From contig NC_010655.1 in the NCBI RefSeq assembly GCF_000020225.1, forward strand, positions 1,200,001 through 1,232,000: a stretch of 32,000 bases of DNA. Reading direction: 5' to 3'. Each line of letters starts with the position of its first letter. Position 1 is the stretch's first letter. Positions 228 to 11,207 of this stretch are shown in pieces. The notes under the pieces are model-generated. The model was not told the DNA's origin, searched no databases, and saw nothing but the letters and a program-made list of their open reading frames with translations. Made by a program: the position numbers and the translations under genes. This stretch comes from Akkermansia muciniphila ATCC BAA-835 (GTDB lineage: Bacteria; Verrucomicrobiota; Verrucomicrobiia; Verrucomicrobiales; Akkermansiaceae).

Positions 228-3200
228 ATGGGAAACTCAATAGACCATGGCATGTTCCGGAAGTCCGTCCTGCTGGCTTTCGGATTGTCCATTTCCTTCT
301 CGGGCTTCGCGCTTGCCGCATCGGAAGAACCGGTTTCGGAGCAACAGGCCCAGGCCGTTGAAGGCGCCAGAAAAATCAATCCTGCCGCCGTGGAAGTGTT
401 GCTTGACAACAACCGCCGGATGACGCTCGATTTTTACGGAGACAATGTTTTCCGGATTTTCCGGGATGACAGAGGCGGTATTATCCGAGATCCCAAGGCG
501 GAACCGGAAGCCCGCATTCTGGCGGACAGTCCCCGGAGGCCGGTTTCCCGGCTGGATGTGGACCAGCAGGGCGATGCGGTTGTCATCACTACGGGGAAGG
601 TCAGGATTGAGATAAATAAAAAGACCTCTCTTTTCAAGGTGATCAATCTGAAGGATCATTCCGTGGTGGTGGAGCAGGCGTCCCCCGTGCTTTTTGGAAA
701 GGGCAAAACCAGCTTTTCCCTGAAGGCGAAGCCGGACGAATATTTTTACGGCGGCGGCGTACAGAACGGCCGTTTTTCCCACAAGGGAAAGGTCATTTCC
801 ATAGAAAACCAGAACAGCTGGACGGATGGCGGCGTGGCTTCCCCCACTCCCTTTTACTGGTCCACCGGCGGGTACGGCGTCATGTGGCATACCTTCAAGA
901 AAGGGCAGTATGATTTCGGTTCCAGGGAAGAGAATCTGGTGAACCTCTCGCATGATGAAAATTATCTGGATGTCTTTTTCATGGTCAGCGACGGGCCGGT
1001 CAGCCTTTTGAGGGATTTCTACCAGCTTACTGGCGCTCCCGTTCTGCTGCCCAAGTTCGCCTTTTACCAGGGCCACCTGAACGCCTATAACCGGGATTAC
1101 TGGAAGGAAGATGAAAAAGGCATCCTGTTTGAGGACGGGAAACGGTACAAGGAAAGCCAGAAGGATAACGGAGGCATTAAGGAATCCCTGAACGGGGAAT
1201 TGAATAATTACCAGTTTTCCGGCCGCGCCGTCGTGGACCGTTACAAGGCCCATGACATGCCGCTGGGATGGCTTCTGCCGAACGACGGCTACGGAGCCGG
1301 GTACGGCCAGACGGATACCCTGGACGGCAATATTGCGAATTTGAAGAGCCTGGCGGACTACGCCAGGAAAAACGGCGTGGAAATCGGTTTGTGGACCCAG
1401 TCCGACCTGCATCCCAAGCCGGAAATCAGCGCTTTGCTCCAGCGCGATATCGTGAAGGAAGTGCGGGACGCCGGAGTGCGCGTGCTGAAGACGGACGTCG
1501 CCTGGGTAGGCGCGGGCTATTCCTTCGGTCTGAACGGTATTACGGACGTAGCCCAGATCATGACTTACTACGGGAATAACAGCCGCCCGTTCATTATTTC
1601 CCTGGACGGCTGGGCCGGAACCCAGCGGTATGCCGGCATTTGGTCGGGCGACCAGACGGGCGGCGTCTGGGAGTATATCCGTTTCCATATTCCCACCTAC
1701 ATCGGCTCCGGCCTTTCCGGGCAGCCCAATATCTGTTCGGACATGGACGGCATTTTCGGCGGAAAGAACCCGTTGGTGAACGTCCGCGATTTCCAGTGGA
1801 AAACGTTCACCCCCATGGAACTGAACATGGACGGCTGGGGAGCCAATGAGAAGTATCCCCATGCCTTCGGGGAACCTTACACCTCCATCAACCGATGGTA
1901 CCTCAAGCTCAAGTCGGAACTGCTTCCGTACGCTTACAGCATTGCGGAGGAATCAGTTTCCGGCCTGCCCATGATCCGGGCCATGTTCCTGGAATATCCC
2001 AATCCCTACACGCTGGGGAAAGCGACGCAGTACCAGTTCCTCTACGGCCCTTACTTCCTGGTGGCACCCGTTTACCAGGAAACCAGGGCGGATAAGGAGG
2101 GGAATGACGTCCGCCATGGCATTTACCTGCCGGAAGGGCAGTGGATTGATTATTTCACCGGGGATTTGTATGAGGGCGGCAAGATTTACAATGATGTTGA
2201 CGCTCCTTTGTGGAAGCTGCCCGTGTTCGTTAAAAACGGCGCGATCATCCCTATGGCGAACCCGAGCAACAATGTCTCGGAAATCAATCCCAATCTGCGC
2301 ATTTACGAACTTTATCCGCACGGCAGCACCTCCTTTGCCACGTATGACGACGATGGCGTGACGGAGGAATACAGAACCGGCAGGGGCGTCCGCACTCTGG
2401 TGGAGTCCAGGGTGGACGGCAAAAACAACGTGACCGTTACTGTTCATCCGGCGGTGGGGGATTTCGACGGCTTCCAGAAAAAGAAGGCCACGGAATTCCG
2501 CATCAATGTGACGCAGAAGCCGTCCGGGGTTTCCGCCAAAATCGGGGGAAACAGCATCAACCTGGCGGAAGCGAATTCCCTGGAGGATTTCAAATCCAGG
2601 GAGAATGTTTATTTTTATGACCGGGCTCCCAACCTGAACAGGTTCGCAACGAAAGGCAGCGATTTTGAAAAAAAGGTGATCGCCGGGAATCCGCAATTGC
2701 TGGTGAAGCTGGCCGCAGCAGATATCACGGCGGCCCCTACGGTGCTTTCCGTGAAAGGGTTCCGGTTTGAACCGGCTGAAAAGTACCGCCTTTCTTCCGG
2801 AGCCCTGACCGCTCCCGCCAATGCTGCGGTGACGGAGGAAAATGCGGCGGCCTATACCCTGAAGCCCACGTGGGACGCCGTCCCGAACGCCGATTTTTAT
2901 GAAATCGAGTTTGGAGGAATGCTGTACACCACCATCAAGGGAACGGAATTCCTGTTTGAGGATTTGGAGGCCGAGACTCCTTATTCCTTCAAGGTGCGGG
3001 CCGCCAACCGGGACGGCCATTCCGCGTGGACGGCCGTCAGCGCGAAGACGAAAGCCAATCCGCTTGAGTTCGCCATTCCGGGAATCGAAGGTGAAACGAG
3101 CGTGGAAAACCAGGGCAGCTCCCTGGCGAAGCTGTTTGATTTCAAGGAAAAGGATGTGTGGCACACGAAGCATGATGCGAAGGCTGTTCCGTTTGACCTG

Positions 3201-4163
3201 GTCATGGACCTGAAAACGATTAACAGGCTTGAGAAGTTTCATTACGTTCCCCGCGAGGACGGCGGCAACGGAACGCTGCTGAAAGGCGCTGTTTATTACG
3301 GCATGGACCGGGAGAACTGGACGAAGGCAGGAACGTTCCAGTGGGATAAAAATGGAGACGTGAAGATATTCGGCTTCAAGGATGCTCCCACGGCGCGCTA
3401 TATCAAGCTTCATGTCACGGAAAGCGCGGGTGATTACGGCTCCGGCAGGGAAATCTACGTTTTCAAGGTTCCGGGTACGGAAAGCTATTTGCCGGGCGAT
3501 ATCAACAACGACGGCAAGATTGACCGGAATGACCTGACTTCCTACATCAACTATACGGGCCTGCGGAAAGGCGATTCCGACTTTGAAGGCTACATCAGTA
3601 ACGGGGACATCAACAAGAATGGCCTTATTGACGCTTACGATATTTCCGTGGTAGCCACCCAGCTGGAAGACGAAGCCGACCAGCCGCAGGAAGAAGCCGA
3701 CAAGAAAGATGAGGAAGAGGATAAGGCGGGAGGGGACGACGAGAAGAAAAAATCCGCCGAGGAGGCAAAGAAGAAAGTCCGCGTGGACGGAACGCTTTTG
3801 CTTAGTGCGGATAAGAAAAGGTATTCCAGGGGAGATGCCGTCAAGGTGTCCGTGAAGGGCCGGAACCTCCGGCTGGTGAATGCCCTGAGCTTCGCTCTTC
3901 CGTATGACCCCAAGGATTTGGAATTCGTGGGCGTGGAGGTGAAGAACATGAAGAACATGGAGAACCTGACGAACGACAGGCTTCATACGAACGGGACCAA
4001 GGCCCTGTACCCCACCTTCGTCAACATCGGAGACAAAGAGCCTGTGGAAGGAACCTCCGAACTGTTTGTGCTGAAATTCAAGGCTCGTCGCGATATGAAG
4101 TTCCAGCCGAAGCTCACGGACGGCATGGTGGTGGATAAAAAGCTGAACACCAAAAAATTGTAA
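228..4163 (+). CDS. Secreted multidomain glycoside hydrolase family 31 (GH31) protein with FN3-like, F5/8 type C (discoidin/CBM32-like), dockerin-like and cohesin-like modules
   Basis: 1311-aa ORF with an ATG start. N-terminal signal-like segment FRKSVLLAFGLSISFSGFALAAS. GH31-type core motifs (VLKTDVAWVG, IWSGDQTGG). FN3-like segment (TWDAVPNADFYEIEF...YSFKVRAANRDG). Discoidin-like segment (RYIKLHVTESAG...EIYVF). Two dockerin-type repeats (DINNDGKIDRNDL, DINKNGLIDAYDI). The start could instead be Met9 at 252. Confidence 0.85.
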   Translation: MGNSIDHGMFRKSVLLAFGLSISFSGFALAASEEPVSEQQAQAVEGARKINPAAVEVLLDNNRRMTLDFYGDNVFRIFRDDRGGIIRDPKAEPEARILADSPRRPVSRLDVDQQGDAVVITTGKVRIEINKKTSLFKVINLKDHSVVVEQASPVLFGKGKTSFSLKAKPDEYFYGGGVQNGRFSHKGKVISIENQNSWTDGGVASPTPFYWSTGGYGVMWHTFKKGQYDFGSREENLVNLSHDENYLDVFFMVSDGPVSLLRDFYQLTGAPVLLPKFAFYQGHLNAYNRDYWKEDEKGILFEDGKRYKESQKDNGGIKESLNGELNNYQFSGRAVVDRYKAHDMPLGWLLPNDGYGAGYGQTDTLDGNIANLKSLADYARKNGVEIGLWTQSDLHPKPEISALLQRDIVKEVRDAGVRVLKTDVAWVGAGYSFGLNGITDVAQIMTYYGNNSRPFIISLDGWAGTQRYAGIWSGDQTGGVWEYIRFHIPTYIGSGLSGQPNICSDMDGIFGGKNPLVNVRDFQWKTFTPMELNMDGWGANEKYPHAFGEPYTSINRWYLKLKSELLPYAYSIAEESVSGLPMIRAMFLEYPNPYTLGKATQYQFLYGPYFLVAPVYQETRADKEGNDVRHGIYLPEGQWIDYFTGDLYEGGKIYNDVDAPLWKLPVFVKNGAIIPMANPSNNVSEINPNLRIYELYPHGSTSFATYDDDGVTEEYRTGRGVRTLVESRVDGKNNVTVTVHPAVGDFDGFQKKKATEFRINVTQKPSGVSAKIGGNSINLAEANSLEDFKSRENVYFYDRAPNLNRFATKGSDFEKKVIAGNPQLLVKLAAADITAAPTVLSVKGFRFEPAEKYRLSSGALTAPANAAVTEENAAAYTLKPTWDAVPNADFYEIEFGGMLYTTIKGTEFLFEDLEAETPYSFKVRAANRDGHSAWTAVSAKTKANPLEFAIPGIEGETSVENQGSSLAKLFDFKEKDVWHTKHDAKAVPFDLVMDLKTINRLEKFHYVPREDGGNGTLLKGAVYYGMDRENWTKAGTFQWDKNGDVKIFGFKDAPTARYIKLHVTESAGDYGSGREIYVFKVPGTESYLPGDINNDGKIDRNDLTSYINYTGLRKGDSDFEGYISNGDINKNGLIDAYDISVVATQLEDEADQPQEEADKKDEEEDKAGGDDEKKKSAEEAKKKVRVDGTLLLSADKKRYSRGDAVKVSVKGRNLRLVNALSFALPYDPKDLEFVGVEVKNMKNMENLTNDRLHTNGTKALYPTFVNIGDKEPVEGTSELFVLKFKARRDMKFQPKLTDGMVVDKKLNTKKL

Positions 4164-4347
4164 TTTAACATCCTGATACGGCTCCATGCCCGGCCAAACG
4201 GCGGCCGCGCATGGAGTCTGCCGTTCCGGCGGAGTGTTTCCGCAGTATTCATCGCTGTGGAGCGGTGTTCTTCCGCGTGTTTCGAAAAATCCGGACGGAG
4301 CGGCGACGCGGAAATATTTTCCTGCCTCGCGTTTCCGGCGGAGCGTG

Positions 4348-5757
4348 ATGCAATGGGGCTATCTTAACAGGCGGATGAACCGTTTTTTTCTGGCGCGACC
4401 GGTCTTTTCCCTTATGTTGGGGGCACCAGACAGGCCCCACGATGCCATGACCGGCCCCGGACTCATCTCCTTGTTCTGTTTTTTGATAACGGCCGCCTAT
4501 TTTTTGCGCGGCGGGATGTGTGCGGGCGTTGTTTTGTGCATGGGCTTGGCGTTTTTTTCATTTTCCCGTCGCGGCTGGCTTCGCAGGAGCGTCACGTTTC
4601 TGCTGCAGGTTTCCCTGCTTTTCTGGGGGGCGGAAGCCTGGCGTCTGGCCAGGCTGTGGATGATGGAAGGGGGGCCTTTCCTGTTCTGGACTTCCATTCC
4701 GGCTGCCGCGCTGTTGCTTCATGCGGCGGCCATTCTATGGCGGAGGCGCGGAGAAAAGAATTTGCCCGTCCCGGAGCTGGCCCGCAGCCGCGTATTTTCC
4801 GTTTCCGTATTGCTTCTGTTTTTGCTGGATGCGCTGGTTCCTTTCCGTTTGCTGATGGGGGAGCGCATCTTGCCGTGGCAGGGGGCTAATGGGCTGGCGA
4901 TTCTTCTCCTGGCCTGGTGGGGCGGCTATTGCGCGGAAGGTTTGTTGAATCCGCAGACGTCTCCGCGCAGGCGGCAGGTGATGTGGACCGTGTTTGCCTC
5001 CGCTTTTTTTCTCCAGTTTCTGCTGGGAGTGACGGTGGCTCCCTCCCTGTTGATGACGGGGAAGCTCCATATTCCCGTGCCGTTTATGATGATTTCCGGC
5101 CCGGTTTATCGGGAAGAAGGTTTTTTCATGCTGGCATTGTTCAGCGTATCCGTCCTTATGGCCGGGAGTTCCTGGTGCAGCCATTTGTGCTACTTCGGGG
5201 TGTGGGACTGCCTGGCCGCCGCTTCTTCCCGCAGGAAGGGGCATCCGGTGCCGGGTGGGAAAAAAGCCTGTGACTGGAGGTGGTTTTCCCTTGCCGCGGC
5301 AGTAGGGATTCCCCTCCTTTTGTCCGTGTGGGGCGTTCCGCTGGGGTATGCCCTGGCGGCGGCGTTCGCCGTAGCTCTCACGGCTCCATTTGCCTGGAAG
5401 AGAAGTTCCGAAAACGGTGTGCGGGAATATTGCAGCAGGTTCTGCCCCATGGGGCTGGCCGCCAGTTTGCTGGGCAGGCTGTCCCCGTGGCGCATGCGCG
5501 TCAGGGAGACATGCACCGGGTGCATGCGGTGCGCCTCCGCCTGCCGTGATCTCGCCATCTCGCGCGGGGGCGGGGCCTGCCGCATTTCCCGGCGCTGCAC
5601 CTTGTGCCGCGACTGTATTTCCCGGTGTCCGCATGGCGCTTTGAGCCTCGGCATGGCCGGCCCCTTTTCCTCTGTGCCGTCCGTGCGGGCGGATATGTAT
5701 TTTGTAACGCTGGTTTCCGTCATGCATGTGGTCTTCCTGGCCACGGCTCGAATCTGA
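4348..5757 (+). CDS. Integral-membrane polyferredoxin (NapH/MauN-like 4Fe-4S binding protein)
   Basis: Many hydrophobic helices. Two membrane-proximal CxxxC motifs (CSHLCYFG, CSRFCPMG). Two C-terminal ferredoxin-type clusters (CTGCMRCASAC, CTLCRDCISRCP). The ORF opens at 4186, but its first ~55-90 codons are basic and non-membrane-like. The true start (4348, 4375, 4414 or 4447) is uncertain. Confidence 0.6.
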   Translation: MQWGYLNRRMNRFFLARPVFSLMLGAPDRPHDAMTGPGLISLFCFLITAAYFLRGGMCAGVVLCMGLAFFSFSRRGWLRRSVTFLLQVSLLFWGAEAWRLARLWMMEGGPFLFWTSIPAAALLLHAAAILWRRRGEKNLPVPELARSRVFSVSVLLLFLLDALVPFRLLMGERILPWQGANGLAILLLAWWGGYCAEGLLNPQTSPRRRQVMWTVFASAFFLQFLLGVTVAPSLLMTGKLHIPVPFMMISGPVYREEGFFMLALFSVSVLMAGSSWCSHLCYFGVWDCLAAASSRRKGHPVPGGKKACDWRWFSLAAAVGIPLLLSVWGVPLGYALAAAFAVALTAPFAWKRSSENGVREYCSRFCPMGLAASLLGRLSPWRMRVRETCTGCMRCASACRDLAISRGGGACRISRRCTLCRDCISRCPHGALSLGMAGPFSSVPSVRADMYFVTLVSVMHVVFLATARI

Positions 5758-6018
5758 TTTTATGTTGCCATGAGAGATTCCTGCTCCCTGGAGTATCCGT
5801 TTTGCGGAGGATGGATGGCATCTGTCCATTAGGAGGCTTTTTCAGAGCTGCCGTCAGAGGGATTCAGGCAGCGGTGCAGGAGGGGGACGGCCCTGAATTC
5901 ATGGAACGGCATGGTTCCCTCTTCCCATCCGAAAGAGTGGATTTTGGTTTCAGAAGGTCATTTTTGTTATTCATTGAGAGATTTATTGATGATTTAAAGT
6001 TTTTGTTATGATTTTTGA

Positions 6019-6504
6019 ATGACCGTTCAATTTATTAAAGTCACTAAAAAAGATAGGGTCTGCTATGCTCCGGTGCCGGAGCCGTTGGAAGAGGGGGATA
6101 AGCTGGAAATCATGGAAATGAAGGATGAAGCCCTTTTCCCGCCGGCAGGGAAAAACGCAAGGATTTCCCTATCCAGGAATCCCATGGTATTCGTGAAAAT
6201 GAATGACGGATTCCAGCGCATCCTGATGAAGAATATCCTGTATGTGGAGGCGGGCGGAAGTTATTGCACGCTGCACGTGCACGGCATGCCGGCTATCCTG
6301 GTATCCGCTCCGCTGGCGCGGGTATCCGAGCATCTGGATGGGGAATATTTTATCCGCGTGCACCGTTCCTACCTGGTTAACAAGCTGCATATAGAATCCA
6401 TTGCGGGCAACTTCCTCCAGGTGGGCGTCGTTGCCATTCCCATCAGCAAATTCATGAAGAAAAAAGTGCTGGGCAGTTTGAACATGCTGTCGTTTTCCAA
6501 ATAA
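6019..6504 (+). CDS. Stand-alone LytTR-family DNA-binding protein (no receiver domain)
   Basis: 161 aa. The C-terminal ~95 aa match the LytTR pattern (ILYVEAGGSYCTLHV...FIRVHRSYLVNKLHIESI...IPISKFMKKKV). The N-terminal ~65 aa are not a CheY-like receiver. AT-rich upstream region. Confidence 0.8.
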   Translation: MTVQFIKVTKKDRVCYAPVPEPLEEGDKLEIMEMKDEALFPPAGKNARISLSRNPMVFVKMNDGFQRILMKNILYVEAGGSYCTLHVHGMPAILVSAPLARVSEHLDGEYFIRVHRSYLVNKLHIESIAGNFLQVGVVAIPISKFMKKKVLGSLNMLSFSK

Positions 6505-6663
6505 GTTCCGGCCTGCCGCACGGGCTCCTGCGGCGTTCCGGGAAAGCGAAATGGAACGGCCGGAAAGGCGGGATGGAAGCAGAAACGGAATGGCCGCATC
6601 ATTCACGACGTCGCCGGAAGGCGGCATATCAATGAATCTAAACCAGAAATAGAAATTAAATAT

Positions 6664-7503
6664 ATGGCAATTGACAGATCAGCAGCAGAAGCGGCGACTT
6701 CCTCCCTGCAGTCGCTGCCTTTCGGCAACATCATCGGCGGTCCCCTGGTCGCCTGTGTGGAAGCACAGGCCCAGGCGGCCCGGACTTCCTGGGAATTCAT
6801 CCAGAACGTGGGCCTGTACGCGGATGGGGAAGAGAAGAAGACGGTGAACGTTTCCTTCCAGTTCATCAAGGACGGCCGCATGGCTCAGATTACGGTTCCC
6901 CTTCTGACCATCGTCCCCATTCCCTATATCGCCATTAACTCCATCGACATCAATTTCAAGGCGAATATCAGCGCGTCCGCCGCCAGTACGGAGACGGAAA
7001 ATTCCTCCAGTTCCGTAGACACCAGCGTTTCCGCCTCTGCAAGGTGCTTTTGGGCGCGCGGCAGCATGAATGCCAGCTATTCCAGCAAAAAGGACTCCTC
7101 TGCGACCAGGGATTCCAAATACAGCGTGGAATACACCATGGACGTAGCCGTCCATGCCGGACAGGACAGTATGCCTGCCGGGATGGCCAAGGTGCTGGAG
7201 ATGCTGAACAATAGCATTTCCGTCGTTTCTCCGGAAGGGTTCCTGGACGTGCAGCATGCCATCCAGGACGACGGAACCGTGAAATTGATAACCTCCTACA
7301 AAAACAGGGAGGGGCTGTTTGACCCGGAAGCCATCACCCTGCGGATAGGCGAAGCGACGGAAATATTTGAAAACGGTGCGGGGAATGAAGCCAGGATTGT
7401 GAAAACGGATTCCGGCAAGGAATACACACTTTCCAGGGAAGACGCCAGAAACTGCACGGTGAGCGCTGGAGAACTCAAGAGGAAGGTGGCTGTAGGCGCC
7501 TGA
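6664..7503 (+). CDS. Hypothetical protein, paralog A of a three-member family (DUF2589-like from memory)
   Basis: 279 aa, ATG start. N-terminal helix motif IIGGPLVACVEAQAQAA, then a beta-hairpin motif ITVPLLTIVPIPYIAINSIDINFKANI. A Ser/Thr-rich loop follows, then MDVAVHAGQDSMPAGMAKVLEML. The antisense ORF 6679..7515 is R/G/H-rich, typical of a shadow frame. Confidence 0.75.
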   Translation: MAIDRSAAEAATSSLQSLPFGNIIGGPLVACVEAQAQAARTSWEFIQNVGLYADGEEKKTVNVSFQFIKDGRMAQITVPLLTIVPIPYIAINSIDINFKANISASAASTETENSSSSVDTSVSASARCFWARGSMNASYSSKKDSSATRDSKYSVEYTMDVAVHAGQDSMPAGMAKVLEMLNNSISVVSPEGFLDVQHAIQDDGTVKLITSYKNREGLFDPEAITLRIGEATEIFENGAGNEARIVKTDSGKEYTLSREDARNCTVSAGELKRKVAVGA

Positions 7504-7541
7504 TAACCGAACCATAGCGATTTCTCCTCCATTCCAGAGCC

Positions 7542-8348
7542 ATGTCCCGTCTTAATCTCATCGTGGAATCCCTGCTGAAGGACATTATTGAAGCGCAGCA
7601 TGCGGCAAACTGCCACGCGGCATCACTGGCGCGCCAGTATGGGAAGAGAGGCCGTGCGTGCGGTTTCCCGCTTCCCAGCGCCCAGATAGGCTCCCTGGAA
7701 TTCGATTTGAAATATGCGGTGACGGGAACTTCCGGGGTGGAGGAGAAACAGGTTGCGGACACGGAGCAGTGGAGCCTGTTCCGGCAGGAACTGGAAGAGC
7801 GCGTGCCGGCGTTTGCCATCCGTTCCATTGTGATGGCCGTGGTGCATTCCAGCCTTCCGGACGACGAAGCGAGAAGCGACTTCTCAAGCCTGCTGGCCAG
7901 GGAGGAACAGTGGAAAAAGAATTTCTGCTCCTACCTGGGGAAGAAAATTTCCGCAGCCGTTTCCGCTCATGAGGGCGCGCTCCTGAAGGCGGAACCCGGG
8001 CTGGACAGGGGATTGCTGCTGGAGCTTCTGGCAGGCGTCGCGGAAAGGGAGTTCATGGATAATCCGGAGCTGGAGGACCTGTTCCAGGGAACCCGGGGAG
8101 ACCCCCTCAGGCAGGAATGCCGCGCCAATCTCCGGGAAGGCCTTTCCTCTTTCTTGGCCGCTCTGGCGGAAAAGTACGTCCTCACCAGGCAGGAAAGCAG
8201 TGTGGTGGTGGATGTGGAAGTAGAGGCGGACAAGCTGAAAAAGATGCCGGAGGAAGCCGTGCAGACCCTGCGCCTGAATATATCCCCTGCTTCCATTCCC
8301 TCCGTTCTGGCGGAGCAGAATGATGTTTCCGGGTTGTCCGCGCAATAG
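7542..8348 (+). CDS. Hypothetical protein, paralog B (same N- and C-terminal signature, helical insert)
   Basis: 268 aa, 38 bp after the previous stop. N-terminus LLKDIIEAQHAAN...FPLPSAQIGSLEFDLKYAV. C-terminus VDVEVEADKLKKMPEEAVQTLRL. Both segments are collinear with the paralog A and C motifs. Confidence 0.7.
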   Translation: MSRLNLIVESLLKDIIEAQHAANCHAASLARQYGKRGRACGFPLPSAQIGSLEFDLKYAVTGTSGVEEKQVADTEQWSLFRQELEERVPAFAIRSIVMAVVHSSLPDDEARSDFSSLLAREEQWKKNFCSYLGKKISAAVSAHEGALLKAEPGLDRGLLLELLAGVAEREFMDNPELEDLFQGTRGDPLRQECRANLREGLSSFLAALAEKYVLTRQESSVVVDVEVEADKLKKMPEEAVQTLRLNISPASIPSVLAEQNDVSGLSAQ

Positions 8349-8354
8349 TGATAG

Positions 8355-8951
8355 ATGATGAGTGATTCTACAAATAATAACAAGGTGAACGGGCACATTA
8401 TGAGCCTGCAGCAGCTGATTTCAGCGCCGCTGGTCGCAACGATTGACGCGGATGCGATGTCCACGGAACGCTACATGAAGCATTTCATGTCCCTGGCCTT
8501 TGAGTCCTACAATCCTGTGGACGGTTCCACCGGGGCGTTGAGGTTGATCAGCTTCAATTTTACGGACAGCGACGCTTCCGGCGGCGCGGAAAAGAAGGTC
8601 AGCGTGCCGCTCGTCAGCCTGGTGACGCTGCCGCTGCTGCAAATCAAACAGGCGGATTTTGATTTTGACATCAATATCATTGACGCCGTAGCCGCCGCGC
8701 CGAATGAACATTTTTCCCTGAACAGGGGAGAGGTGGAGTCCCCCGGCGGAAAAGAGCGGGATGAAGGGCTGAATTTTCGGGCTTCCCTGGCTCCGCAGTC
8801 CGGGAGAGGGGCTTCTTCCTCCCTGCAGGCGAACATGAAAATCCATGTCTCCATGCAGCAGGCTGACATGCCTTCCGGCCTGTCCCAATTTCTCCAGCTG
8901 GCTTCCAGGCCGCATTATGAGGATGTCCCTTCCCGGGAAAAGAATGATTAA
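8355..8951 (+). CDS. Hypothetical protein, paralog C (DUF2589-like from memory)
   Basis: 198 aa, 6 bp after the previous stop. Motifs LISAPLVATIDADA, VSVPLVSLVTLPLLQIKQADFDFDINIIDA and MKIHVSMQQADMPSGLSQFLQLA. Confidence 0.75.
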   Translation: MMSDSTNNNKVNGHIMSLQQLISAPLVATIDADAMSTERYMKHFMSLAFESYNPVDGSTGALRLISFNFTDSDASGGAEKKVSVPLVSLVTLPLLQIKQADFDFDINIIDAVAAAPNEHFSLNRGEVESPGGKERDEGLNFRASLAPQSGRGASSSLQANMKIHVSMQQADMPSGLSQFLQLASRPHYEDVPSREKND

Positions 8952-8965
8952 TTGAAAAAAACGAT

Positions 8966-9196
8966 ATGGACCAGAAAACAACTTATTCCTACCAGCGCAC
9001 TCCGGGCCTTGACTGCCCCAAATGCGGGGTGTATTTCCCCACGACCATTCCGGACTTGCTGTCCGGCTCCATCAGGTGCCCTTATTGCGGCCTGACGCTT
9101 TACATTGACCGGAAAGAATCAGGCCATGCCATGCAGGCCCTGGAAAATTTCCAGAACGCATTAGACAAGCAGCTTCCCTCCGCCTCCCTGTCATGA
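8966..9196 (+). CDS. Zinc-ribbon miniprotein (CPxCG...CPxCG)
   Basis: 76 aa, 14 bp after the previous stop. Two Cys pairs, CPKCG and CPYCG, are spaced like a zinc ribbon. Its stop overlaps the next start (ATGA at 9193-9196). Confidence 0.6.
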   Translation: MDQKTTYSYQRTPGLDCPKCGVYFPTTIPDLLSGSIRCPYCGLTLYIDRKESGHAMQALENFQNALDKQLPSASLS

Positions 9197-9546
9197 AGAA
9201 ACCGTTGATTATCCTGTCCGCCGTGCTGTGCATGGTTCTGCCGTCCTTGTCTCCGGCGGAGATGCGGCAGCGGGAACCCCGCCAGCTTGCCGCCGCCTGG
9301 CAGGAAGTAAAGAAGCAGATAGCAGACGACGGGAAAACCATCCGTGTGAGGGACGGCATTCAAGCGCTTGAACTCCTGGCGGAACTGGGGATCTCTTCCG
9401 TTCCGGCGGACGGCGTCAGGCTGTCCCGCGGCAGTCTGACCATTGTGGTCACGCGTGGGAAGAAAGAGGACGGGATTTTTTACGTGCTGGCTGTTAAGGA
9501 AGAAGGGGGCGCAAGCCTGGAAGTGAAGATGGTTCCTCCTTCCTGA
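9193..9546 (+). CDS. Small secreted protein of unknown function
   Basis: 117 aa with a Sec-type signal-like N-terminus, MKKPLIILSAVLCMVLPSLSPA. Translationally coupled to the zinc-ribbon gene by a 4-nt overlap. Confidence 0.6.
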   Translation: MKKPLIILSAVLCMVLPSLSPAEMRQREPRQLAAAWQEVKKQIADDGKTIRVRDGIQALELLAELGISSVPADGVRLSRGSLTIVVTRGKKEDGIFYVLAVKEEGGASLEVKMVPPS

Positions 9547-9563: not shown

Positions 9564-9884
9564 TCATTCATTTTCAAAATCCCACACGCGGCGGCGGGCG
9601 TTTTTCTTCGTCCGCCCGCCGTTGGCTTTCCGGAAGGGGTCAAAAAGAGAGTCCAGCCCGTTCCCTTTCAGCAGCAGGCACTGTTCCATCAGACGGCCCA
9701 GTTTCCCTTTCGGGAACCCTTTGGCCTGGAACCAGGCCAGATATTCCTGGGGGACGTCCATCAGCGGACATCCCTTGGGCGGGTATTTGGCAGGACCGTA
9801 CATGCCGAAAGGGATATGGGTCTGCGCGATTTCCTCCACCAGTTTTCTCAAATCTTCCGCATCTGGTATTTCAGGATCGTTCAT
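9564..9884 (-). CDS. DUF3820-like protein (family annotated as putative quorum-sensing-regulated virulence factor)
   Basis: The ORF track extends to 10040, but that N-terminal extension is R/P/G-rich and overlaps the upstream hydrolase gene. Met at 9884 gives MNDPEIPD...IPFGMYG...VPQEYLAWFQAKGFPKGKLGRLM, which is typical of DUF3820. Its ATG overlaps the upstream stop (ATGA at 9881-9884). Confidence 0.7.
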   Translation of the reverse strand: MNDPEIPDAEDLRKLVEEIAQTHIPFGMYGPAKYPPKGCPLMDVPQEYLAWFQAKGFPKGKLGRLMEQCLLLKGNGLDSLFDPFRKANGGRTKKNARRRVWDFENE

Positions 9885-10585
9885 AGGTTTTGCAGAATAA
9901 ATGGTTGCAGGCATTCCGCCAGCCTTTCCGGCGTTTCCAGGGGAAGCCGGTGGCCGGCATGAGGGATGATGACGGCTTGCCCTCCTGCCATGCGCCGCGC
10001 CAGGGCGCTGAATCTGGCATCGCGCTGTCCGGCAATCCACAGCTGGGGAACAGGGGATTGCTTCAAAAGCGGGGCCAGGTTTTCCTGTGCGCCCGCGGAC
10101 CAGTCAATAAAGGCGCGGGAGATGGATTTGCGCCACGGTTTCAGGGAAGAACGGTCCGGAGGCGGCGGACTGCCTTCAAATACGCCCTGGGCATCCCATT
10201 CCTTCAAAAAATTTTCCCAAGATGCGGAAAGGCATTGGACGGCCCATTCCGCATCCTTCGCCCGCCGCGCCGCCCGTTCCTCTTCATGTTCCAGGCCGGG
10301 ATTGGCGCTGACGAATATGGCTCCTTTCCAGAGAGGGGGATGGGCCAAAACGGCCTGCATGGCCAACCTGCCCCCCAGGGAATAGCCGCAGATGAGGGGA
10401 TGACGATCCTGGGAGGCTATTTCGGAACAAAGCACGCGCCCCATATCCTTCAGGCTTTTGGGGCAGCATTCCAGATACCTCCAGAGGTTCAGGGCGCGAG
10501 CCTCCACTCCTCCGGCACGAAGAAAATCCATGACGGGTTTCCAATCCGCCGGAGAACCCAGATTGCCGTGCAGAAGCCAAAGCAT
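9881..10585 (-). CDS. Alpha/beta-fold hydrolase (MenH-like serine hydrolase)
   Basis: 234 aa. N-terminal LLHGNLGS oxyanion-type motif, GYSLGG nucleophile elbow, and a C-terminal HAGH catalytic His region. Confidence 0.8.
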   Translation of the reverse strand: MLWLLHGNLGSPADWKPVMDFLRAGGVEARALNLWRYLECCPKSLKDMGRVLCSEIASQDRHPLICGYSLGGRLAMQAVLAHPPLWKGAIFVSANPGLEHEEERAARRAKDAEWAVQCLSASWENFLKEWDAQGVFEGSPPPPDRSSLKPWRKSISRAFIDWSAGAQENLAPLLKQSPVPQLWIAGQRDARFSALARRMAGGQAVIIPHAGHRLPLETPERLAECLQPFILQNL

Positions 10586-10601
10586 GGTCGGAACCGTCTT
10601 T

Positions 10602-11207
10602 CTATTTGACGCCGTAGCCGGCGAGGCCGTTCATAAACATCTGGACGGAAATCATGATGAGCACCATGCCCATCATCCGTTCCAAGGCGATTGTCCCTTT
10701 TTCTCCCAGCAGACGCAGGAACTTCTGGGCGATGAAAAGCACCATTCCGGAGAGGAACCAGGCGGTCACGATGGCCCCGGCATAGGTCATCTGGGAAATG
10801 CTGTCCGGAGTCTGGGAGGCGTGCAGCATAATGATGGACAGGGAAGAGGGGCCGGCCATCAGGGGCATGGCGATGGGAACAATGAAGGGTTCGTCTTTTC
10901 CGTCCGCTCGTCCGGAAGAAGAAAGCATATCCTTGGCGGGGAAGACCATGCCCAGCGCTACGAGAAACAGCAGGATGCCTCCGGAAATGCTCAGGGTGGA
11001 AGGTTCCAGCCCCAGCAGGTTCAGCAGGAATTTTCCGGAAAAGAAGAAAAGGAGCAGCAGGCTCAACGCAAATACAAGCTCCCGTGTCAGAATAGCCTTC
11101 TGCTGGGCGGGCGAGTATTTTTTCAGCATTCCCTGGATCATGGGCGCCAGACCCACCGGGTCGATGACGATGAACAGAAGAATAACAGTGGAAAGGAAGT
11201 CCTGCAT
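10602..11207 (-). CDS. MarC-family (UPF0056) integral membrane protein
   Basis: 201 aa, multi-pass hydrophobic. N-terminus FLSTVILLFIVIDPVGLAPMI is typical of MarC/NAAT-family proteins. Confidence 0.85.
   Translation of the reverse strand: MQDFLSTVILLFIVIDPVGLAPMIQGMLKKYSPAQQKAILTRELVFALSLLLLFFFSGKFLLNLLGLEPSTLSISGGILLFLVALGMVFPAKDMLSSSGRADGKDEPFIVPIAMPLMAGPSSLSIIMLHASQTPDSISQMTYAGAIVTAWFLSGMVLFIAQKFLRLLGEKGTIALERMMGMVLIMISVQMFMNGLAGYGVK

Follow-up and report, generated by a model that had tools for sequence, protein, structure and literature searches.

A DUF2589 gene pair and its probable cryptic relative in a conserved, LytTR-linked cassette of Akkermansia muciniphila and Bacteroidales

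The Pfam family DUF2589 (PF11655) is catalogued without an assigned function or structure. Tandem genes of this kind have already been noted in Archaeoglobus fulgidus, in which AF0414-AF0417 were described as lactate-induced "short, DUF2589 related genes" (PMC3949148), and a recent Pfam family, AF_0414 (PF27375), is named after the A. fulgidus protein. A Bacteroides fragilis DUF2589 gene is listed among the differentially expressed genes in a carbapenem paper, which says nothing more about it, and we found no functional work on DUF2589 in the literature that we searched. In Akkermansia muciniphila, Chia et al. (2018) found that Amuc_1010 was up 5.28-fold (q < 0.05) in coculture with Anaerostipes caccae on mucin and that this gene and the unidirectional putative operon that follows it, Amuc_1011-1014, were among the most strongly upregulated contiguous gene groups; the authors raised the possibility of autoregulation and recommended more work, and their supplementary tables contain no per-gene fold changes for Amuc_1011-1014 (PMC5945754). 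Here we describe a computational analysis of this cluster in a 32,000-nucleotide stretch of A. muciniphila ATCC BAA-835 (NC_010655.1, positions 1,200,001 to 1,232,000, forward strand; "the window," to which all coordinates refer), and in particular of three adjacent genes that we call A, B and C.

Genes A (6664-7503, + strand, 279 amino acids [aa]), B (7542-8348, +, 268 aa) and C (8355-8951, +, 198 aa), whose products all have a pI of 5.0, belong to a run of open reading frames (ORFs) that all point in one direction, being preceded by a LytTR regulator gene and followed by genes D and E, with spacings of 159, 38, 6, 14 and −4 bp in the order regulator-A-B-C-D-E. The five proteins from the regulator through D are exact matches to the consecutive accessions ACD04836.1-ACD04840.1 (A, B and C being ACD04837.1, ACD04838.1 and ACD04839.1, the last also B2UQV4_AKKM8). 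Because the accessions are consecutive and the arrangement agrees with the one published for Amuc_1010 and the operon Amuc_1011-1014 behind it, we equated ACD04836-40 with Amuc_1010-1014, an equation that we regard as safe; A, B and C are thereby equated with Amuc_1011, Amuc_1012 and Amuc_1013.

An earlier note on this DNA had proposed that A, B and C are tandem, diverged paralogs sharing two blocks around variable inserts, and the three ORFs and nine motifs that it named are all present where it had placed them. For A and C, the proposal holds in full. Both carry the RefSeq name "DUF2589 domain-containing protein" and both pass the Pfam DUF2589 model, A with 98.3 bits (E = 7e-28, model positions 1-154 of 154) and C with 52.7 bits (E = 7.8e-14, model positions 2-149), against a gathering score of 23 bits. 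BLASTP aligned the two directly (E = 5e-11, 23% identity) over 166 residues that cover both blocks, and comparison of their ortholog families with hhalign gave a probability of 99% (E = 1.8e-18). Judged by their sequences, A and C are true DUF2589 paralogs. Much of this is not new, in that DUF2589 and AF_0414 were already catalogued, the A/C paralogy follows known annotation and the Akkermansia cluster had been flagged in 2018.

The middle gene is a different matter. B gave no match in Pfam, NCBIfam, PADLOC or PHROGs; BLASTP of B against A (E = 42) and against C (E = 0.055) was not significant; and neither B nor 62 other members of its family matched the DUF2589 model at an E value of ≤1. By this family model, B is DUF2589-like and not a DUF2589 member. 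Its relatives are also hard to find: a word-indexed search with B returned only Akkermansia proteins with at least 59% identity, and the wider family, 219 representatives in 1.84 billion by exhaustive search, needed a profile. B and its Bacteroidales ortholog share 26% identity (E = 3e-32), full-length members are about 260 aa long, and B-family genes occur only inside DUF2589 clusters. Some of these genes, found among DUF2589 genes, encode minimal homologues of 108 to 143 aa in which block 1 is joined almost directly to block 2.

Profile-profile comparison gave B a place beside A and C, at least in part. The full B family aligned with the A family at P = 0.0077 and with a diverse DUF2589 profile, built from 59 sequences taken from fetched loci, at P = 0.002, and the unedited minimal-B family aligned with the same 59-sequence profile at P = 4.5e-5 (probability of 69%, score of 35.5). 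Column shuffling of the last comparison gave a null of 12.3 ± 2.2 with a maximum of 19.1 (0 of 80 shuffles reached 35.5), and 18 negative-control comparisons with unrelated neighbor families scored 10 to 17.6 (P ≥ 0.056). The register in block 1 pairs ...IIEAQHAAN with ...CVEAQAQAA and FPLPSAQIGSLEFDLKYAV with VPIPYIAINSIDINFKANI. With the inserts excised from B and A, the alignment continued through block 2, pairing SSVVVDVEVEADK with YSVEYTMDVAVHAGQ, for a total of 85 columns (P = 1.9e-4; 0 of 150 shuffles reached the score), at excision points that were chosen with the hypothesis in mind. Homology of B block 1 to DUF2589 is thus moderately well supported (P = 4.5e-5 to 7.7e-3), and the similarity of block 2 is suggestive. 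Descent of all three genes from one ancestor, as proposed in the earlier note, is therefore firm for A and C, by Pfam, BLASTP and hhalign alike, and plausible with moderate support for B, for which it draws on the block 1 similarity and on the element order and insert site described below. On these grounds, B is probably a cryptic member of the DUF2589 superfamily.

The AlphaFold2 model of B was confident (mean predicted local distance difference test score [pLDDT] of 88.9, predicted template modeling score of 0.75). Block 1 (7551-7757, +; pLDDT of 81 to 96) is predicted to comprise a helix at residues 4 to 34, which contains LLKDIIEAQHAAN, an extended FPLPSAQ segment and a long beta-hairpin at residues 52 to 72, whereas block 2 (8184-8282, +) comprises a strand at residues 215 to 226, a short helix at 229 to 233 and a strand at 240 to 247, which contains VDVEVEADKLKKMPEEAVQTLRL; the three motifs of B lie at residues 11 to 23, 42 to 60 and 223 to 245. 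Between the blocks, the earlier note had seen a helical insert of about 150 aa, and the model indeed places helices at residues 74 to 101, 108 to 119, 122 to 142, 144 to 149, 156 to 172, 175 to 181 and 186 to 211, a bundle of ~138 aa (residues 74 to 211; 7761-8174, +; pLDDT of 89). Precisely this part is absent from the minimal homologues, so we regard the bundle as a true insert. In the confident model, the amphipathic strands pack against helices in what would be a soluble, two-layer alpha/beta fold. Foldseek found no credible counterpart for it in the PDB (best E = 0.085, TM < 0.3) or in BFVD (best E = 0.15), and sequence-profile searches of the PDB with the A and C families and with the B family gave nothing meaningful.

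A link from B to a named family runs through the minimal homologues. A profile of B orthologs retrieved P0391 (108 aa, E = 1.3e-6), which carries AF_0414 (PF27375) in its precomputed annotation and whose gene has as neighbors a DUF2589 gene and one for a D-like zinc ribbon. B is linked to AF_0414 indirectly, via this protein, and differs from such minimal members by its ~140-aa helical insert.

A is the most conserved subunit, with 55 to 64% identity to its Bacteroidales orthologs. Its block 1a, the helix motif GGPLVACVEAQAQAA (residues 25 to 39; 6736-6780, +), is invariant at nearly every position in 23 orthologs and falls within a helix at residues 20 to 50 of a low-confidence AlphaFold2 model. 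Block 1b, VPLLTIVPIPYIAINSIDINFKANI (residues 78 to 102; 6895-6969, +), is a hydrophobic, proline-rich segment followed by an amphipathic strand; it has the highest period-2 hydrophobic moment within A and pairs with B residues 42 to 62 in hhalign. Block 2, MDVAVHAGQDSMPAGMAKVLEML (residues 159 to 181; 7138-7206, +), lies within the strongly conserved YSSKKDS..T.DSKYSVEYTMDV. The Ser/Thr-rich loop between the blocks (about residues 104 to 150; 6973-7113, +), which the earlier note took for probably disordered, indeed had a pLDDT of 24 to 36; its length varies among orthologs, and P0068 has a natural deletion of 18 residues there. The corresponding motifs of C are at residues 23 to 34, 84 to 108 and 161 to 183, and the loop of C, described as short, runs to about 45 residues and is not really so. 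As for the DUF2589 core of A, its monomer model was poor (pLDDT mostly <55). A long helix is followed in it by a Pro-rich segment, an amphipathic strand, the variable loop and a further strand, and the confident model of B shows this same succession, from helix through Pro segment and strand or strands to the insert and a last strand, with the insert of B located at the same topological site as the variable loops of A and C. The A model differs in having an extra hairpin after the helix and in ending with a helix where B has a strand. Foldseek with the A model returned only MHC-platform-like matches at an E value of ≥0.0087, which are not credible given the low confidence of the model.

Beyond block 2, A has a C-terminal extension that was confidently modeled as an all-beta domain (residues 190 to 279; 7231-7500, +; pLDDT of 80 to 93) of about 90 residues, not the ~70 of the earlier estimate. 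This part, which the DUF2589 family model does not cover, varies across taxa or is replaced by charged, coiled-coil-like tails, and the Bacteroidales A orthologs carry an additional Glu/Lys/Arg-rich tail of 60 to 70 aa. Some A-type paralogs (L088:5678-7096; P0097 and P0110 at residues ~290 to 350) have long Glu/Lys/Arg-rich tails that resemble single alpha-helix or coiled-coil spacers, and others have long acidic or polar N-terminal extensions (L088:2967-4328). The N terminus of A, MAIDRSAAEAATSS, is not signal-like, and neither a signal peptide nor a transmembrane segment was found in A, B or C; D also lacks a transmembrane segment. The beta strands of A, B and C show a strong alternation of hydrophobic and polar residues.

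We then asked how the cassette is arranged elsewhere. A pattern scan with one genome per species found 179 relatives, the best 80 loci being mostly from Bacteroidales and Akkermansia, with other Verrucomicrobiales. We scanned 87 loci at first and 92 in all (Bacteroidota, Verrucomicrobiota and metagenomes), with genes called by hidden Markov models built here. The order A(n)-B-C-D was found in about 85 of the 92, mostly from Bacteroidales. Exact LytTR-A-B-C-D(-E) was present in 53 of the 87, and most of the others had A-B-C-D and a regulator that lay elsewhere or beyond the end of the contig. B (85 of 92) and D (84 of 92, always after C) never exceeded one copy per locus, and A-type genes were present in 1 to 6 copies. 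About eight loci were expanded, as in A-A-A-B-C-D-A-A; a metagenomic contig reads muramidase-A-A-A-Bmin-C-D followed by three more DUF2589 genes (Bmin being a minimal B); a minimal locus, L089, is Bmin-C-D; and on a Fulvitalea plasmid a histidine kinase, a response regulator and one hypothetical gene precede A-B-C-D. The identical A protein is on record for tens of thousands of assembly blocks, a sign that the operon is probably widespread, not patchy, in A. muciniphila.

The subunits have diverged at very unequal rates (mean pairwise distances over 66 loci of 0.37 for A, 0.48 for C, 0.56 for D and 0.66 for B). The distance matrices of B and C form the tightest pair (r = 0.91; partial r of 0.79 to 0.85 when controlled for LytTR or the muramidase), a mirror-tree correlation that we take as suggestive, not as proof. 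Between Akkermansia and Bacteroidales, A shares about 63% identity, C 44% and D 34% (E = 8e-13). D (8966-9196, +, 76 aa; exact match to ACD04840.1, equated with Amuc_1014) consists of a CxxC...CxxC zinc ribbon and a C-terminal helix and gave only weak, generic zinc-ribbon matches in Pfam and NCBIfam. E (9193-9546, +, 117 aa, pI of 9.2), which has a signal-peptide-like N-terminal segment, has homologues only in Akkermansia loci; from the 4-bp overlap of its gene with D, we infer that it belongs to the A-D system.

Stand-alone LytTR regulators are represented by the HdrR/BrsR type in streptococci. The regulator of the present cassette (6019-6504, +, 161 aa by ORF call; exact match to ACD04836.1/B2UQV1_AKKM8, equated with Amuc_1010) resembles them in having a LytTR DNA-binding domain (PF04397, residues 67 to 131, E = 1.3e-12) and, in Pfam, neither a receiver nor any second domain, even though ACD04836.1 is annotated as a "response regulator receiver protein." Amuc_1010 was likewise described as a LytTR protein without a receiver domain (PMC5945754). 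A further likeness is that it adjoins an operon that is coinduced with it, with autoregulation suggested. Unlike HdrR/BrsR-type systems, the Akkermansia locus shows no adjacent gene for a membrane-protein inhibitor (A-D have no transmembrane segment, and E alone has a hydrophobic, signal-like N terminus), and the operon is unrelated to bacteriocin or competence target genes. In 53 of the 87 loci scanned, a co-oriented LytTR gene preceded A, and several more loci had one elsewhere nearby; the Akkermansia and Bacteroidales regulators share 32% identity.

The 159 bp between the regulator and A (6505-6663, +) are the presumed promoter and operator of the A-E operon. They contain the direct repeat AAGGCGGGAT (6565-6574)/AAGGCGGCAT (6618-6627), 53 bp apart, with several GGAA-rich repeats in between, and just 5′ of the LytTR start codon TTTTTGTTAT occurs twice (5961-5970 and 6000-6009), 39 bp apart. 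Both sets of repeats are candidate regulator sites, and predicted cis elements upstream of Amuc_1010 are mentioned in the 2018 paper (PMC5945754). A simple scan found no sigma-70-like promoter in 6505-6663.

Clustering of the flanking ORFs of the 92 loci revealed recurrent partners. The foremost, in the flanks of 44 of the 92, is an N-acetylmuramidase (PG_binding_1 plus PF11860; Pfam E = 7.6e-70) without a signal peptide, usually co-oriented and just downstream, after D and a member of a second family, F159/F152 (examples are L036:8949-9752 and L014:9845-10660, within the series L012-L083, and also L088:205-1008 and L092:10778-11380). The ~150-aa F159/F152 proteins, encoded between D and the muramidase (L054:8532-9011 for F159; L014:10614-11072 for F152), have no Pfam match; F159 has a basic, amphipathic N terminus, F152 is lipoprotein-like, and the two are homologous (hhalign P = 2.8e-6). 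A DUF3876 lipoprotein is encoded upstream in nine loci. In the Akkermansia loci, the exported protein E stands in place of the muramidase, and it is weakly similar to the F152 lipoprotein family of the Bacteroidales cassettes (P = 0.0055). The proline-hairpin regions of B and of DUF2589 both aligned weakly (P of 0.06 to 0.09) to one and the same F159 segment.

With their co-oriented, cytoplasmic PG_binding_1-PF11860 muramidase immediately downstream, the Bacteroidales cassettes are reminiscent of the holin-endolysin cassettes of phages and tailocins. They differ from these in that the DUF2589 cassette has no transmembrane holin (no holin-like transmembrane gene was conserved with the cassette or the muramidase among the loci examined) and is essentially absent from phages, that the Akkermansia locus has no muramidase, and that DUF2589 clusters are also found in a murein-free archaeon.

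What might such a cassette do? A, B, C and D likely form a hetero-oligomer, to judge from sequence comparison and structure models; the earlier note, which named rings, filaments or pores as examples, had suggested such an assembly, and the indirect evidence that fits it is strong. This reading rests on the fixed gene order, on the presence of B and D in at most a single copy beside a variable number of conserved A subunits with variable, outward domains, on the correlated divergence and on the failure of the A core to fold confidently as a monomer in silico. In the scheme that we favor, B would derive from the same helix/Pro-hairpin/strand module as A and C, and the four proteins would assemble in the cytoplasm, with B, C and D as the invariant core and the A-type subunits (1 to 6 copies in other taxa) as the conserved, repeated building block whose variable C-terminal domains may decorate the outside. 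The LytTR regulator would switch the module on in response to other bacteria or stress, and the module would be directed at the membrane or cell envelope. In about half of the Bacteroidales cassettes, the muramidase is co-oriented and follows D; having no signal peptide, it would reach the cell wall only with help, and since the cassette lacks a transmembrane holin, the gate or release role may fall to the DUF2589 complex. Control by LytTR or a two-component system, induction by another bacterium, the holin-less muramidase and the flanking lipoproteins all point toward the envelope or lysis, and we offer an inducible membrane/envelope gate, release or lysis module as a speculation. Taken as a whole (B from the A/C module, an A-D hetero-oligomer and an inducible envelope or lysis role), this is the best explanation that we have, held tentatively and somewhat short of an even balance of belief.

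A bolder version of the scheme is that DUF2589 proteins, with the B-type adaptor and the zinc-ribbon protein, make up a previously unrecognized inducible cytoplasmic machine, widespread in gut Bacteroidales and Akkermansia and found in archaea too. It would be either a complex that, without a holin, breaches or gates the cytoplasmic membrane and lets out the signal-less muramidase or other content in interbacterial encounters or a self-assembling intracellular structure with a new fold; this we consider rather unlikely. Medical research has taken up both A. muciniphila and the Bacteroidales, which are dominant bacteria of the gut, and the operon is present in at least about 180 species genomes, yet the four proteins A-D have no assigned function or recognizable fold despite their strong induction in coculture. 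With the present results, DUF annotations become a defined, testable system, A(n)-B-C-D with a LytTR-type regulator and often a cytoplasmic muramidase and small lipoproteins, of which the minimal versions of ~110 aa are convenient for structural work. Should a lysis/release module or a new intracellular assembly prove true, it would be relevant to the responses of gut commensals to their neighbors. In the literature that we searched, we found no description of the A(n)-B-C-D architecture, its distribution and its partners, of B as a cryptic relative with an insert, of the minimal versions or of the linkage to the muramidase and F152/F159.

Several observations weigh against the favored scheme. 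Tested alone against DUF2589, block 2 of B was not significant (P = 0.041; 6 of 80 shuffles), nor was the B core against the C core (25 of 150 shuffles) or the B family against the C family, and none of the 63 B-family members scanned matches the Pfam DUF2589 model. Two Paludibacteraceae loci (L067 and L069) have an expanded A-A-A-C-D-A-C array with no detectable B, which is therefore not strictly universal; on a Deltaproteobacterium plasmid (L092), two DUF2589 genes occur with a muramidase gene, but neither B nor D was detected there or in a Vibrio locus. A PF11860-like ORF is missing from the whole 32-kb window and from the Akkermansia loci, as it is from about half of the 92 loci. A, B and C are acidic and soluble, and since the amphipathic strands pack on helices in the confident B model, the strand pattern can be explained without insertion into a membrane. 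Finally, A. fulgidus has no murein. The presence of a DUF2589 cluster in this archaeon (PMC3949148) therefore means that the core function cannot be wall hydrolysis.

Several of these same points favor the main rival, that A-D form a purely cytoplasmic, self-assembling shell, filament, lattice or inclusion, the muramidase being either a means of releasing it by lysis or unrelated. Solubility and acidity of all subunits and occurrence in an archaeon would suit such a structure, as would tandem paralogs in variable copy number, outward decorations (the beta domain, the Glu/Lys/Arg-rich tails and the long polar loops) and an extremely conserved A whose core is not predicted as a monomer. By analogy, gas-vesicle Gvp proteins, microcompartment shell proteins and R-body Reb proteins are also small, tandem, diverged paralogs with unequal conservation and variable copy number, but the likeness goes no further, there being no detectable similarity in sequence or fold between these or other known shell or filament proteins and those of the cassette. 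Also against it are the lack of conserved cargo or enzyme genes in the cassette and the low level of Amuc_1011 in the whole proteome of cells in standard growth (PMC4960237). We regard a self-assembling structure as a minority possibility that nevertheless deserves to be taken seriously.

Less probable, and in our view unlikely, is that B is an unrelated partner of A and C whose resemblance to them is convergent or due to chance. The nonsignificant BLASTP results, the lack of a Pfam match in all 63 family members, HH-suite probabilities of only 5 to 69% and the negative outcomes for block 2 alone and for B against the C family would all fit this reading, as would a difference between the models: after the MP motif, A, in its low-confidence model, has a helix where B has a strand. 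It does not readily account for the recurrence of one register in four independent profile pairings, with scores far above those of shuffles and negative controls, for the shared topological position of the variable insert or for the confinement of B-family genes to DUF2589 clusters. Moreover, AF0414, the namesake of the family of a minimal B homologue, was counted in 2014 among the "DUF2589 related genes" (PMC3949148).

A role in antiphage or abortive-infection defense or in another conflict system, such as release of a pesticin-like muramidase bacteriocin with the lipoprotein as its immunity protein, appears quite improbable. High identity across phyla and an identical A in different contexts suggest horizontal transfer, the operon is induced by a second species, and muramidase and small lipoprotein genes are paired, all of which would suit such a system. 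However, PADLOC-DB 2.0 returned no match for A, B, C, LytTR or E, and the weak match of D to the candidate PDC-M14A (E = 4.5e-4) is that of a generic zinc ribbon; the operon is widespread rather than patchy in A. muciniphila and essentially absent from phages and viral contigs; and the Akkermansia loci have no muramidase. Family, defense, phage, PDB-sequence and Foldseek searches identified no characterized relative of the cassette proteins.

Least probable by far, and rejected here, is that A is an outer-membrane beta-barrel protein, as predicted computationally for Amuc_1011 by Ottman et al. (2016), probably because of the alternating hydrophobic and polar residues in its strands. The strongly amphipathic strands and the Ser/Thr-rich loop would suit a barrel, but A, B and C have no signal peptide, Amuc_1011 was absent from sarkosyl outer-membrane fractions (PMC4960237), the relative B is confidently predicted to be a soluble alpha/beta protein, and homologues exist in an archaeon.

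The context of the cassette in other genomes yielded some further observations. In three loci of one Bacteroidales species (L001:1987-6201, − strand, L002 and L003), the cassette abuts genes that, by eye only, look phage-tail-like, encoding in L001 a 159-aa tube-like protein and a 661-aa tape-measure-like protein. L004 has a 100% identical A next to a wholly different left flank (aspartyl-tRNA synthetase and NIF3), and the occurrence of an identical A in differing flanks suggests that the cassette moves between contexts. A phage origin was considered and rejected, as matches were found in 1 of 50,697 phages (an unannotated 4-kb record) and in 7 of 2.9 million viral contigs, in each of which the match lay within ~10 kb of a contig end.

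The genes on either side of the cassette in the window were also inspected. Downstream, 9564-11207 (−) encodes a QSregVF_b-domain protein, an alpha/beta hydrolase and a MarC-family membrane protein (precomputed Pfam, L005-L007), and these genes have no conserved association with the cassette. Upstream, the long ORF 4186-5757 (+) specifies a polytopic membrane protein whose C-terminal part has Cys-rich, 4Fe-4S-like motifs with faint Fer4 matches; its product is given as 436 to 447 aa in public annotations, and its adjacency to the cassette is not kept outside Akkermansia. Farther upstream, 228-4163 (+) encodes a 1,311-aa secreted GH31 glycoside hydrolase with F5/8 type C and dockerin-like domains (precomputed Pfam of the identical locus L007).

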